From a virus (lineage: Duplodnaviria > Heunggongvirae > Uroviricota > Caudoviricetes), in the IMG/VR virus record IMGVR_UViG_2713897054_000020: a stretch of DNA of 9,715 nucleotides, one strand, 5' to 3'. This document shows, in pieces, positions 1 through 3,113 of this stretch. Position numbers and translations under genes: made by a program. How positions within the stretch are numbered: the first letter of the stretch is position 1; each line of letters begins with the position of its first letter. Below the pieces are notes generated by a model. That model was not told where the DNA came from and did not search any database. It worked only from the letters and a program-made list of their open reading frames with translations.

Positions 1-282
1 TTATCGCCGTAACCGCTCCGGCTTCTTCCAGTGGTACGTAATTTTTTCTTTCTCCCGATACAGTTCAACGCGGCGATTGTAGGCCAGCATTTCCAGAACG
101 CGGATCCGTATGTCGCGCATATCCACGCCGTTAAGCTCAATACCGTCACGGCGCATCACCTCAGCAACCACACGCGCATAATTTTCGGCGGTCACGCTGT
201 CCGGCTGCGTGGCCTGTTCGTCAGCCTGCTGGCTGATTCCGGCAACGCGACGGATTAATCGCAGTAGTTCGGCTTCTGTCAT
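1..282 (-). CDS. hypothetical protein (93 aa), gene immediately beyond cos-1
   Basis: Complete minus-strand ORF: ATG at 282-280 preceded by a G-rich SD-like stretch, stop TAA at 3-1 at the window edge. Co-oriented with the rpp-like gene. No motif recognised. Confidence 0.45.
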   Translation of the reverse strand: MTEAELLRLIRRVAGISQQADEQATQPDSVTAENYARVVAEVMRRDGIELNGVDMRDIRIRVLEMLAYNRRVELYREKEKITYHWKKPERLRR

Positions 283-317
283 TGTGCCCCCATCGTTCTG
301 ATAGTCTGGTGTCGTCG

Positions 318-520
318 GGTCCTTCCTGGAATTATGGCCCGTTACGGGGCGGCGACCTCGCGGTTTTTATCTGTTTATGAAAATTTTCCGGCAAAAGTCA
401 GATCCGTTCTTCTTCTCTGTAACAGACTGTTTAAAAATGAAAATATTAAAAAAAGAAAGGATCTGACACGAGGCATTTTAGCCAGAAAATGTCATTATCA
501 GATCCTTTCTCATTTTTGTT
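318..520 (+). other. lambda-type cohesive-end site (cos-1): cosN core plus cosB-like R-site array
   Basis: 339-363 CCGTTACGGGGCGGCGACCTCGCGG matches the lambda cosN region as I recall it (12-nt cohesive end GGGCGGCGACCT = 347-358), followed by TTTATGAAAATTTTCCGG as in lambda. Downstream are three copies of an 8-mer, TCAGATCC at 398-405, inverted GGATCTGA at 459-466 and TCAGATCC at 498-505, with an A-rich tract between them (about 430-455), mirroring the lambda R3-I1-R2-R1 layout. Confidence 0.75.
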
Positions 521-537
521 CAATAATTGCGCGTCTG

Positions 538-1080
538 TTACTCGCCTTTCTTCTGTAGTAACTTCTCCGGTACGTCTCCGGTAGTTTCCATCAGGTAATC
601 AGCCAGTATCTGCGGGAGGTTGTCAGCAACTCCTGCGCAAGCATTACAGGCTTTAACCACTTCCTTTTTAAGTCCATCCAGCATAGCGGGGGTCATCTGT
701 GGGAAGCTCCTTTGCATAGTAAGCGGGAGGCTGTCCATGATTGATGAAATCTGACTCGCCAGTTTTGAAAGCGCGTACATGCAAAACTCTGTATCAATCA
801 CGTCACCGCGATCGCGCTCGTTTTTAAGTTCCTGCGCCTCTGCCTGTGCTGTCAGTAATCTGATCCTGACTCGTAAAAGTTCATCATCATCAATCTCACC
901 TTTGCCGTTTGTAAGCTGGCTAATTGCATTGTTAACCCTATTGTCTATCACGCTGGCAACATCATAAAACGCCTCACGGCCTTTACGCTCAACGGGAGTT
1001 ACTCCCCACTTGTCGAACGCTGTCGCACTTACACGGCAGCTTTTAGCCATGTTTTTTTTGTTCATCAGGTGCGATTTCAT
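538..1080 (-). CDS. small terminase (lambda Nu1) homologue; likely Rpp-type packaging-redirection protein of cos-type PICIs
   Basis: 180-aa ORF. The C-terminal two thirds align with lambda Nu1 (RLLTAQAEAQELKNERD...DTEFCMYALSKLASQISSIMDSLPLTMQRSFP versus Nu1 RLTRAQADAQELKNARD...ETAFCTFVLSRIAGEIASILDGLPLSVQRRFP). The N-terminal DNA-binding region is diverged (NKKNMAKSCRVSATAFDKW versus NKKQLADIFGASIRTIQNW). Flanked by cos sites. The start could be the ATG at 1080 or the in-frame ATG at codon 6 or 11. Confidence 0.85.
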   Translation of the reverse strand: MKSHLMNKKNMAKSCRVSATAFDKWGVTPVERKGREAFYDVASVIDNRVNNAISQLTNGKGEIDDDELLRVRIRLLTAQAEAQELKNERDRGDVIDTEFCMYALSKLASQISSIMDSLPLTMQRSFPQMTPAMLDGLKKEVVKACNACAGVADNLPQILADYLMETTGDVPEKLLQKKGE

Positions 1081-1187
1081 TAATACACCAACTTAATTAC
1101 TGCTTCAGGTTGGTGTATTGCTTGCATCTTTCCCTTTTTATTCATAAAGATAGAGCAAACAACAAAACCACCACCACCACCCTGAAA

Positions 1188-1254
1188 AAGCTCATAAATA
1201 GCGAAAAACCGCGAGGTCGCCGCCCCGTAACGGTCCATATGCCGGAAAGGACCC
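1188..1254 (-). other. second cos-like site (cos-2), inverted relative to cos-1, upstream of the rpp-like gene
   Basis: 1209-1233 CCGCGAGGTCGCCGCCCCGTAACGG is the exact reverse complement of the cos-1 cosN 25-mer. About 65 bp is shared with cos-1 at roughly 85 percent identity, including the flank TTTTTCGCTATTTATGA on the minus strand, which matches lambda. Read on the minus strand the order is cosN, a cosB-like region, then the terminase-homologue gene, i.e. the lambda arrangement. Confidence 0.65.
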
Positions 1255-1284: not shown

Positions 1285-1698
1285 TCAGATGGTTTTCAGT
1301 ATGCGATCGATGTCGCCGTCATCGCCCGGGTTTCTGCCATCGTATGCCATGCCAGCTGATACGGCTTGCGGGCTGTGCATGTCCATAAAGTTTTCAAAGG
1401 CTGCGGTAAGCTCCGGCGCAACCCTCGGACGTTCCTGCTCTATGGTCATGCTAAGGATGCTTTTAGCCGTACCAACATCGATACAAGGCACGTTTGCCAT
1501 TGCACGTAACAGCGGCTGATAGTCGCCAGATTCATCAAGCGCCATAATCGCATCAGCGCGCGGCTTGTCCTGCTCTTCCAGTTTGTTAAGTTGATATATG
1601 GCCTCGTAGGTTGATAACCCTCTGTCAGCCATTGCCCGCGCTTCGGCTTTAAATTTACTCGCCAGCGGTAGCGTCATGATGCTTTCATTCGTTGCCAT
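1285..1698 (-). CDS. hypothetical protein (137 aa), last gene of the capsid operon; possibly an assembly or scaffold-type factor
   Basis: Minus-strand ORF, ATG at 1698-1696, 12-nt gap after the gpD-like gene with a G-rich SD. Acidic, Ala-rich, predicted helical. No motif recognised; the scaffold suggestion rests on position only. Confidence 0.55.
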   Translation of the reverse strand: MATNESIMTLPLASKFKAEARAMADRGLSTYEAIYQLNKLEEQDKPRADAIMALDESGDYQPLLRAMANVPCIDVGTAKSILSMTIEQERPRVAPELTAAFENFMDMHSPQAVSAGMAYDGRNPGDDGDIDRILKTI

Positions 1699-1710: not shown

Positions 1711-2046
1711 TTATCGGGCCAGCGGCTGAACGGATACGCCAGAACCCGCAAAGGCGGCGCATTTTTTCGCATCGGTGTCGACGCTCTCAGGCCAGTTAAC
1801 GGCGGCAATATTGAATATCCCCGTCTTGTAACACTGTGCTGATTTCTGCTTTGACGTGTCCACAGGATACGAAGTCAGATAAACAGCCTTGCCAGATTCC
1901 TGACCATCCCACGGCTTAAACTCGCCATTGTCCGCCAGCATCAGCGGGGTAAATTCCTGAATAACGCCAGCATCAGCGGCAAAATGTACCAGCGTCGTGG
2001 CGACCTGCTGACTGCCTGCGAATAACTCAATGTATGGAGTGTCCAT
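1711..2046 (-). CDS. head decoration protein, lambda gpD homologue
   Basis: 111 aa, about the size of gpD (110 aa). Blocks TPLMLADNGEFKPWDG and WPESVDTDAKKCAAFAGSGVSV align with gpD TPLMLDTSSRKLVAWDG and [30 protein letters not shown] upstream of ATG 2046-2044. Confidence 0.85.
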   Translation of the reverse strand: MDTPYIELFAGSQQVATTLVHFAADAGVIQEFTPLMLADNGEFKPWDGQESGKAVYLTSYPVDTSKQKSAQCYKTGIFNIAAVNWPESVDTDAKKCAAFAGSGVSVQPLAR

Positions 2047-2057
2047 AGAATCCCCCG

Positions 2058-3113
2058 TTAACCAATTTTGACGGTAACAAATTTGCGAATATCTGCCGGT
2101 ACCGGCTGCGGTGCGCTGTGTGTCTGCACGTACTCAATCGCCGGATCGCCGTCCTCAATCCAGTTTTTCGGGTAGTACATGTTTTGCGTTGCGCCCGTTC
2201 TGACCGCTTCCTGATCCATAATCGCACCATAGGCCACCAGGCCTTTATTGTTGGTGTTACCCAGGACCAGTAAATCAGGCTCAAGGAAATATTTTTCGGT
2301 GCCGTCGCTGTCAGCGTATTTGCCGGAATAGACGATAAGGGCAATATCGCCCAGATAGCCTTTAAAGCTCACCACTTCGCCCAGGTTTTTACAGGCCAGT
2401 TCTGCGGCGGATTCTGAACCACGGGAAAGATCGTACAGCTCACGGAATTTTTTAAAGCTGCGTAACGTGCGCCATACCTCAGCGCCCATAATCATGACGT
2501 TTGCGGGGCAACCAGCCTGATCAGCATAAAGCTCGATGTCATAGATTGGGTCGTGCATCTCTTTATCCTGCTCGGACCATTTTTTACCCTTGGCCTGCTC
2601 TATGATGCAGTTTTCCGGTATTTTCCAGTCTATTTCATAGCGTTCTATGCCTTCGCCCTCAATAATGTTTTTTCCGGTCGTTATCGCATTCACCGCTAGC
2701 CATTCCACGCGCGCTTTAATGGCGTTTACCTGGCGGCGCATGTTGCCAGTAATCAGGCGCATACGTCGGTAGGTAGGGTCGTTAAGCTGTGCCGGATCTT
2801 CTCCAGCCATGCGCATGATGGTTTTTGTTGGATCGATTTCGTGCTTTGGCTTCATGTAGCCAGGTTTAATCGTGCTGGTTTCGTATCCTTTATCGCGCTG
2901 TACCTGGCTGCCAACCATAGGCGAACAAAACGCCGACATGGTGACTTCTTCAATGTCCAGGGTATCCAGCATGATGTTTTGGGTGCTGAATGTCGCCACG
3001 TTCGGGAAAAACAGCGTGGTAAACAGCGGACTGAATTTAAATTCCGCAATATCCCCGCGATTCAGGTACGCAAAAAGCTGGTTAGTGTTAAGTGCCGTTG
3101 CTTTGCCTGCCAT
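2058..3113 (-). CDS. major capsid protein, lambda gpE family
   Basis: 351 aa versus gpE 341 aa. Conserved blocks run across the whole length: EFKFSPLF, PGYMKPKHEIDP, EDPAQLNDPTYRRMR, KGYLGDIALIVYSGKY, LVLGNTNNKGLVAYGAIMD and YPKNWIEDGDPA, against gpE KFKFDPLF, PGYVKPKHEVNP, EDPQNLADPAYRRRR, KGMYGDVAIVVYSGQY, MVLGNTQARGLRTYGCIQD and YPKNWVTTGDPA. The start overlaps the upstream stop (TAATG). Confidence 0.9.
   Translation of the reverse strand: MAGKATALNTNQLFAYLNRGDIAEFKFSPLFTTLFFPNVATFSTQNIMLDTLDIEEVTMSAFCSPMVGSQVQRDKGYETSTIKPGYMKPKHEIDPTKTIMRMAGEDPAQLNDPTYRRMRLITGNMRRQVNAIKARVEWLAVNAITTGKNIIEGEGIERYEIDWKIPENCIIEQAKGKKWSEQDKEMHDPIYDIELYADQAGCPANVMIMGAEVWRTLRSFKKFRELYDLSRGSESAAELACKNLGEVVSFKGYLGDIALIVYSGKYADSDGTEKYFLEPDLLVLGNTNNKGLVAYGAIMDQEAVRTGATQNMYYPKNWIEDGDPAIEYVQTHSAPQPVPADIRKFVTVKIG

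Follow-up and report, generated by a model that had tools for sequence, protein, structure and literature searches.

An island of Escherichia coli from the IMG/VR record IMGVR_UViG_2713897054_000020 (9715 bp, referred to here at its full length as the window) includes a cos packaging site, at 317-510, in which the three R sites share a core, AGATCC, that is not the R-site core of phage lambda. The island is a phage-inducible chromosomal island (PICI) of the EcCICFT073 type. We conclude that this site is probably an exchangeable cosB cassette of phage type, through which helper phages of the Gifsy-1 class would package the island directly. This conclusion is drawn from sequence comparisons, namely the anatomy of the site, its homology to phage cosB regions, the pairing of this core in phages with one class of recognition helix in the small terminase subunit (TerS), the independence of the site from the protein encoded by the island, and a cassette-like exchange of the site between related islands.

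Anatomy of the AGATCC cos

As judged from its elements, the interval 317-510 is a complete lambdoid packaging site with the order cosQ-cosN-I2-R3-I1-R2-R1 (Table 1). Among the features of a lambdoid cosB, an adjoining cosN with 12 nt lambda-like ends, an upstream cosQ and three R sites with R2 inverted are present. R3 is at bp 53-59 from the start of the cohesive end, exactly as in lambda and within the range of about bp 50-65 in which it is expected, a spacing that is critical. The cosN 12-mer, GGGCGGCGACCT, is the lambda cohesive-end sequence, and a second, inverted copy is found at 1214-1225. A cognate terS on the same strand after R1 is not present here. What is found instead is an N15-class terS that converges on the site and has its stop codon 32 nt past R1.

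A preliminary description of this DNA had reported three 8-mers laid out in the direct-inverted-direct order of the lambda R sites, with a core unlike the lambda core, CGTTTCC, and with extended sites resembling lambda R3 and R1 outside the core. The 8-mer, TCAGATCC, is indeed found exactly three times in the window, at the positions reported (398-405 on the + strand, 459-466 on the - strand and 498-505 on the + strand) and nowhere else. The mean number of copies expected by chance is 0.13, and none of 200 dinucleotide-preserving shuffles reached three. A direct alignment to lambda cos, which had been proposed as a check, was made using lambda 1-800 with core positions numbered from the first cohesive-end base, and it bears out the layout, the stated lambda core and the likeness of the extended sites. 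The two sequences are colinear from cosN through R1, and the cores lie at bp 53-59, 113-119 and 153-159 here and at bp 53-59, 114-120 and 155-161 in lambda. R3 is CAGATCCGTTCTTCTTCTCT here and CGTTTCCGTTCTTCTTCGTC in lambda, R2 (bottom strand) is CAGATCCTTTCT and CGTTTCCTTTCT, and R1 is CAGATCCTTTCTCATTTTTG and CGTTTCCTTTCTCTGTTTTTG. The same GTT>AGA change is therefore seen in every R site, and the flanks are otherwise lambda-like.

When members of the class were aligned, the leading T of TCAGATCC was found in the window element alone, and the true core is thus (C)AGATCC. In the AGATCC-class loci anchored independently of cosB (see below), the hexamer AGATCC was kept at all three positions in 13/13, though these loci are too closely related for a strong test of rates.

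An I1-like element, TAAC(N4)(C/A)TGTTT, is found at bp 74-86 in both the window and lambda, with two mismatches in each, and phages of the L008 type have a perfect YAANNNNTTGATW at the I1-like position. A match to the IHF motif carries no statistical weight, since the motif is so degenerate that 81 matches were found in the window against 91 expected, and only the positional match with I1 and I2 of lambda is usable.

The site shares with lambda cosB the architecture, the cosN sequence, the distance from cosN to R3, the positions of I2 and I1 and the flanks of the R sites. It differs by 3 bp in each R core (in R3, bp 54-56 are GTT in lambda and AGA here), and these lie in the segment that discriminates between lambda and 21 (PMC4669245, PMC9026076). 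The changed bases include bp 56, a documented contact for lambda/21 discrimination (PMC4669245). Given the change at bp 54-56 and the part that bp 56 plays in specificity (PMC4669245, PMC9026076), a TerS of the lambda class would probably not use an AGATCC cosB.

The AGATCC core in phages

In a distant BLAST search of 300-560 against phage records, Gifsy-1 and the E. coli phage SerU-LTIIb were matched across the repeat region. The cos regions of both read CAGATCCGTTCTTCTT ... GAAAGGATCTG ... (C/G)AGATCCTTTC, in the same layout as the window, and share with it the core (C)AGATCC, the flanks, the R3-I1-R2-R1 order and orientation and an R3-R1 span of 107-108 bp. The cosN of Gifsy-1 departs from that of lambda at bp 8, 9 and 11, whereas the cosN in the window is lambda-identical, like that of the E. 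coli members of the class. The Gifsy-1-class phages also differ from the window in having their cognate Nu1-type terS after R1 on the same strand, whereas the terS in the window is N15-type and converges on the site.

A gapped AGATCC pattern scan of IMG/VR recovered at least 74 cos-linked sites. Among the matches listed, a Nu1-type terS in the same orientation begins 23-49 bp past R1 in approximately 50 sites; the TerS helix, wherever it was read, is D[VA]RT[VI][TS][AGT]WQ[SN]QG, found with at least five different cosN variants; 17 phage sites have a lambda-type cosN, exactly GGGCGGCGACCT in 15 of them, and a TerS with MNVNKKKLADIFGVDVRTITAWQSQG; and, in the 15 sites in an island setting with a readable TerS, the DNA-binding domain is N15-type or 21-type and never (0/15) has the Gifsy-1-class helix. 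The phage module, made up of the lambda cosN, the AGATCC cosB and TerS, is present at ≥80 % query coverage in 223 of 5426 complete E. coli genomes. An example of such a module is the prophage of strain 118UI (NZ_CP032515, near position 1,512,983), with a TerS of the DVRTITAW type. For comparison, the lambda helix RTIQNWQEQG is paired with CGTTTCC, and the 21-type helix RTIERWQSQG with CATGTCGG.

In an alignment of 40 unique class members, CAGATCCGTTCTTCTT (R3), AAAGGATCTG (R2) and AGATCCTTTC (R1) are invariant, but this is partly ascertainment, as the pattern scan required the cores, and only the extensions into the flanks are free evidence. These extensions, not required by the pattern yet invariant in the 40 sequences, are GTTCTTCTT after R3, AAAGG before R2 and TTTC after R1, and the spacers between them vary. 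The R sites in the window conform, with the core (C)AGATCC flanked by GTTCTTCTT at R3 and by TTTC at R2 and R1.

A second lineage of islands (L027, L032, L033, L053, L054 and L068) was also recovered. It combines an AGATCC cosB with a 194 aa TerS that has the 21-type helix VDPRTIERWQ, and its cosN are non-lambda variants, e.g. GGGTACGGGTACGCG and GGGTAGCCATACGCG.

Relationship to the cos sites of EcCICFT073

Two cos sites have been described in EcCICFT073. According to Fig. S1A of PMC6739421, cos1 is RppA-dependent and lies upstream of rppA, while cos2 is inverted and adjoins c1504. An equation of the AGATCC site with cos1 is ruled out by the sequences shown in that figure. Window 312-358 matches the left flank of cos2, TCGTCGGGTCCTTCCTGGAATTATGGCCCGTTACGGGGCGGCGACCT, base for base, and the AGATCC site is hence the positional homologue of the published cos2. 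The name 'cos-1', used in the preliminary description, is therefore misleading. Both sites occupy the slot between the 3' end of rpp or terS and the c1504-like gene, both are inverted relative to cos1, and the identical left flank runs through cosQ and cosN. They differ in that ATGTCCGGTT occurs three times in EcCICFT073, where AGATCC occurs three times in the window.

The EcCICFT073 cos1, with its 'R3-PICI' (Fillol-Salom 2019; Murialdo & Feiss 2022), is likewise an island cos with cosQ and cosN of lambda type. However, it precedes rpp on the same strand and contains CACCACCAC once, at bp 55-63, with neither repeated R sites nor I1. None of these distinguishing features of the Rpp-dependent cos1 was found in the AGATCC site, where bp 53-59 are CAGATCC, the repeats number three, and the site lies beyond the 3' end of the neighbouring gene, the two converging.

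In published work, RppA-dependent transfer was not supported by the cosB of EcCICFT073 cos2, and deletion of cos2 led to more lambda-mediated transfer (PMC6739421, PMC6092414), while the cloned cos2 conferred phage-mediated transfer on a plasmid (PMC6092414). The Rpp-independence of a second island cos has been shown for EcCICFT073 only (PMC6739421). That the use of cos2 in the window is likewise independent of an island protein is supported indirectly, by the shuffling of cos2 classes described below.

The cosB of both EcCICFT073 cos sites was reported to be unidentifiable or "completely divergent" (PMC6092414, PMC6739421), and Murialdo and Feiss (PMC9026076), who analysed only the cos upstream of rpp, described the island cosB as having no repeated R sites. 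Re-read against the phage sequences assembled here, the cosB of EcCICFT073 cos2, like that of the AGATCC site, turns out to be of a standard phage class. EcCICFT073 cos2 (L007:38140-38309) has three copies of ATGTCCGGTT, one direct and two inverted. A scan for the ATGTCCGGTT motif found it in more than 100 IMG/VR contigs, L132 among them. Most are from phages, a large lambdoid group in which this is the native cosB, cosN is that of lambda and a separate class of TerS, VATQTEVARHLSLTDRQLRRLQKL, is encoded immediately after the site. One of the prophages of CFT073, approximately 30 kb from the island (L329:1035-1190), has a cosB of this class, and its R3, CCATGTCCGGTTTCTCT, is identical to that of cos2. 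The experimentally defined helper of EcCICFT073 is not this prophage but 'phage 4', a 21-class prophage. Assignment of cos2 to the 21 class, like that helper, was ruled out, as the repeats are ATGTCCGGTT and not CATGTCGG. In the literature searched, no paper on the island cosB identifies cos2 as a phage-class cosB.

Exchange of cos2 among related islands

The survey of related islands was anchored on the 93 aa c1504-like gene, which is independent of cosB. It covered 80 island loci (L249-L328), and both cos sites and the intervening protein were classified. The cos1 site follows the island protein: GGTGGTGG..TTGTTGTT was found in 30 of the 31 loci with an N15-type TerS, the remaining one being a G-run variant, and CACCACCAC was found in 14/14 loci with an Rpp of 144 or 146 aa. 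At cos2, the loci with an N15-type TerS had AGATCC (14 loci), a 21-like cosB (7 loci) or none (10 loci), and those with an Rpp had ATGTCCGGTT (8 loci) or an N15-like cosB (6 loci). Among the 80 islands, 35 loci were classifiable at cos2. In none of these was the cosB of the lambda class (CGTTTCC), and in none did the cos2 class equal that of the island's own cos1 or protein. That cos2 is never of the lambda class nor of the island's own could be a design rule, though the sample is small.

The same N15-type TerS is accordingly accompanied by AGATCC, by a 21-like cos2 or by none, and AGATCC is also found with a 21-type TerS, so the AGATCC core is not tied to the DNA-binding protein of the island. 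The limits of the exchanged segment can be seen in locus L250, a sister island that does not differ from the window up to about bp 40, cosQ and cosN included, or from just past R1 onwards, but has three 21-like R sites between. In the comparison with phage L017, homology begins at cosQ and stops at R1. On these alignments, the cosB segment from about bp 41 to bp 165 behaves as an exchangeable cassette between conserved flanks. Window 283-540 is found at ≥80 % coverage in 384 of 5426 E. coli genomes, mostly at 95-99 % identity.

The island TerS and its cognate cos

The gene between the two cos sites encodes a TerS of 180 aa, where EcCICFT073 has rppA (144 aa). The protein is 46 % identical to the TerS (gp1) of N15 over its full length (E 8e-54), and the N-terminal motifs are nearly the same, MNKKNMAKSCRVSATAFDKWGVTPVERKGREAFYDVASVIDNR in the island TerS and LNKSDMASSLGISVQAFDKWGVQPVEKRGREVFFDVRSVVDNR in that of N15. 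The match to Pfam Phage_Nu1 is confined to residues 62-148, and in the alignment the lambda-like C-terminal tail, which is the TerL-binding region, is retained. Upstream of this gene, in the same orientation, is the other cos (Table 1), which can be aligned to the cos of N15 over a stretch that takes in the R3-N15 element TTGTTGTTT. With an N15-like TerS and an N15-like cos upstream of it, the island has what is, by homology, a cognate cos-terS module separate from the AGATCC site. The presence of a full-length N15-type TerS in the rpp slot, together with an N15-like cos, suggests the 'own TerS plus helper TerL' strategy of the staphylococcal pathogenicity islands (SaPIs) rather than the Rpp heterodimer strategy. 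The recognition helix of the island TerS, VSATAFDKWG, is N15-type and not the Gifsy-1-class D[VA]RT[VI][TS][AGT]WQ, and a TerS cognate to AGATCC would consequently have to come from a helper.

One further observation concerns this cos. At window 1169-1182, GGTGGTGGTGGTGG lies beside TTGTTGTTT and is the reverse complement of the 'R3-PICI' of EcCICFT073 cos1, CACCACCACCAC (L007:37605-37620), so that the same triplet repeat is found in the opposite orientation.

The preliminary description had read the AGATCC array as a variant core that helper TerS alone would not recognise but a complex redirected by an Rpp-like protein would. Of this, a lambda-type cosB with a coordinated change of core remains, while a site purpose-built for an Rpp-redirected complex is not supported. 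The core is a variant with respect to lambda, but it is normal in Gifsy-1-type phages and is no invention of a satellite; there the same core, layout and spacing are native, with the cognate TerS immediately downstream. The window encodes no Rpp homologue that could be found, as tblastn and blastp searches with RppA and RppC were negative (tblastn E at least 1.5) and PDB sequence searches gave no RppC or Nu1 DNA-binding-domain match for the 180 aa ORF (open reading frame) and no Rpp or Nu1 match for the 137 aa ORF next to it. An Rpp-like protein in the window was accordingly rejected, and the gene in question is a full-length N15-type terS. The slot is that of EcCICFT073 cos2, in which cosB does not direct RppA-dependent transfer, the Rpp-dependent site being cos1. 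Finally, sister PICIs with the same N15-type TerS have a 21-like cosB or a deletion in place of AGATCC, and an AGATCC cosB is also found in PICIs in which TerS has a 21-type DNA-binding domain.

Alternative explanations

The array might instead be read by the N15-type TerS that the island itself encodes, acting singly or in a heteromer with helper TerS, such that only a terminase redirected by the island uses it. The gene for this DNA-binding TerS homologue ends only 32 nt away, lambda DNA can be packaged by N15-specific terminase, at about half efficiency (PMC4669245), R3 in the window has retained the lambda flank CCGTTCTTCTTC, similar to the R3 of N15, GGTTGTTGTTT, and Rpp sets a precedent for heteromers that create a new specificity. 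We nevertheless consider this explanation unlikely. The independence of core and island protein found in the survey speaks against it, and VSATAFDKWG does not resemble the helix that accompanies AGATCC in those phage contigs in which a helix was read. A cognate site for the island TerS already exists at the other cos, and this TerS and the N15-like cos are nearly always found together. The homologous EcCICFT073 cos2 is, moreover, Rpp-independent.

A second alternative, which we regard as rather improbable, is that the array is a neutral relic, without a present role, of a past recombination in which an island and a Gifsy-1-class phage crossed over in the cosQ-cosN region that they share. The phage homology ends immediately after R1, about half of the relatives lack the site and some have lost part of it, and deletion of cos2 in EcCICFT073 did not lower transfer by lambda or phi80. 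However, 13/13 independently anchored relatives retain all three of the R sites, the position of I1 and the precise distance between cosN and R3, and the frequency and high identity of the region in E. coli genomes also count against a relic. Complete, undecayed arrays of four classes occupy the same slot, which looks like repeated selection for a working cassette, and the cloned EcCICFT073 cos2 was active in plasmid transfer.

Least probable, in our estimate, is an interference decoy, in which the array on amplified island DNA would titrate Gifsy-1-class terminase and lower the phage yield, with transfer as a by-product; interference with helper packaging is a known property of PICIs, replication of the island would multiply the helper's cosB many times over, and cos2 was never of the island's own class in the 35 classified loci, but a pure binding decoy would not need the complete cosQ-cosN kept beside the array, and otherwise the idea overlaps with direct packaging by the helper, from which sequence data do not separate it.

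Several points weigh against the conclusion that AGATCC is a working phage-type cassette, in addition to the ascertainment in the alignment of cores noted above. The experimentally documented packaging specificities are those of lambda, 21 and N15 only (PMC4669245). In CFT073, deletion of the prophage with the cosB class matching cos2 left transfer of the island unaffected. In about half of the 80 c1504-anchored relatives the slot contains no cos, and L296 has a deletion from mid-cosN to the terS stop codon (approximately window 355-535) that removes the right half of cosN and the whole of cosB. With absence from about half of the relatives and this deletion, cos2 is evidently dispensable.

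Proposed packaging route

In the route that we consider probable, a helper of the Gifsy-1 class would replicate in the cell, and dimers of its TerS (helix DVRT[IV]T[AG]WQSQG) would bind R3 and R2 across the bend formed at I1 by IHF. With helper TerL placed at the lambda-type cosN by the bound helper TerS, concatemers of the island would be cut and packaged rightwards from 347 with no part played by the island TerS. The N15-like cos (1156-1254, - strand) and the island TerS may serve other helpers, via the conserved TerL-binding tail. Such a route resembles that of SaPIbov5 and P4, satellites with a copy of the helper cos that are packaged directly by helper terminase (discussed in PMC6092414). 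It differs from them in that the mimic cos in the window is a second site beside an island-specific cos-terS module, and in that its class is swapped between near-identical islands.

Other features of the window

Two E. coli genomes contain, next to tRNA-Pro and yejM, a chromosomal island that matches the window at 100 % identity, and the gene organization of the window matches that of EcCICFT073, which is located in CFT073. The order on the minus strand is integrase, AlpA-like helix-turn-helix protein, RepA-family helicase, SSB, lambda E-like capsid protein and gpD-like decoration protein, 137 aa ORF, cos, 180 aa 'terminase small subunit', AGATCC cos and 93 aa ORF. Coordinates of the features of the two cos sites and the genes next to them are listed in Table 1.

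Table 1. Features of the cos region of the window
Feature	Position	Strand	Comments
c1504-like 93 aa ORF	1..282	-	left neighbour of AGATCC cos; cosB-independent survey anchor
cosQ, GGGTCCT	317..323	+	read from sequence; as far from cosN as in lambda and phage L017; flank identical to published EcCICFT073 cos2
cosN, cohesive-end 12-mer GGGCGGCGACCT	347..358	+	lambda-identical
I2-like element GAAAATTTTCATA	376..388	-	bp 30-42; sequence and position identical to lambda
R3, AGTCAGATCCGTTCTT	396..411	+	core CAGATCC 399-405 = bp 53-59
I1-like A/T-rich bend region	420..448	+	TAACAGACTGTTT at 420-432 = bp 74-86; IHF binding putative
R2, inverted; + strand AGAAAGGATCTGACAC	454..469	-	core 459-465 = bp 113-119
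R1, TTATCAGATCCTTTCT	495..510	+	core 499-505 = bp 153-159
PICI-encoded full-length TerS, 180 aa	538..1080	-	N15-type winged helix-turn-helix N-terminus, Nu1-like C-terminal half; converges on cosB
Other cos, published cos1 position	1156..1254	-	cosQ 1248-1254; cosN 1214-1225; N15-like R3 region GGGTGGTGGTGGTGGTTTTGTTGTTTG at 1156-1182

A 74 aa ORF at 334-558 (+) has no family match and spans cosN and cosB, and was therefore taken as spurious. A promoter and terminator scan of 250-1300 gave only weak consensus matches, with the cosN dyad flagged as a 'terminator', and suggested no alternative function for the region.

Homologues of the lambda decoration protein gpD and major capsid protein gpE are encoded at 1711-2046 (-) and 2058-3113 (-), respectively (Pfam HDPD and Phage_cap_E). 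No phenotype was found for the EcCICFT073 homologues of these proteins in published work. The 137 aa ORF at 1285-1698 (-), which adjoins the N15-like cos, is conserved, and no matches to it were found in Pfam or in PDB sequences.

Implications

On the comparisons made here, the second cos of such islands is an ordinary, complete, non-lambda phage cosB, both in the window and, when re-read, in EcCICFT073. This contradicts published statements that the island cosB is repeat-free and unrelated to that of phages, a view that shaped the model of Rpp-dependent recognition, and the pattern of a second cos exchanged as a phage-specificity cassette has not been described in the literature searched. What had appeared to be a satellite's own variant core is corrected to a borrowed phage specificity. 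A cos2 of a phage class would explain both why cos2 is Rpp-independent and why it is useless or harmful with lambda, and it predicts which phages should mobilize which islands. R cores and TerS helices also form natural matched sets, QN/E with CGTTTCC in lambda, ER/S with CATGTCGG in 21 and TA/S with CAGATCC in Gifsy-1.

More tentatively, as a possibility that we do not hold to be established, these islands may package with two keys: a fixed cos1 with the island's own Rpp or TerS, and a hot-swappable cos2 that takes over its entire cosB from the lambdoid specificity class in local circulation, be it AGATCC/Gifsy-1, ATGTCCGGTT, 21-like or N15-like. If so, cos2 would set the helper range of an island, and two further natural packaging specificities, beyond lambda, 21 and N15, would be represented by the arrays of AGATCC and of ATGTCCGGTT and the TerS helices that go with them, providing ready-made cognate pairs for dissecting the recognition of DNA by TerS.

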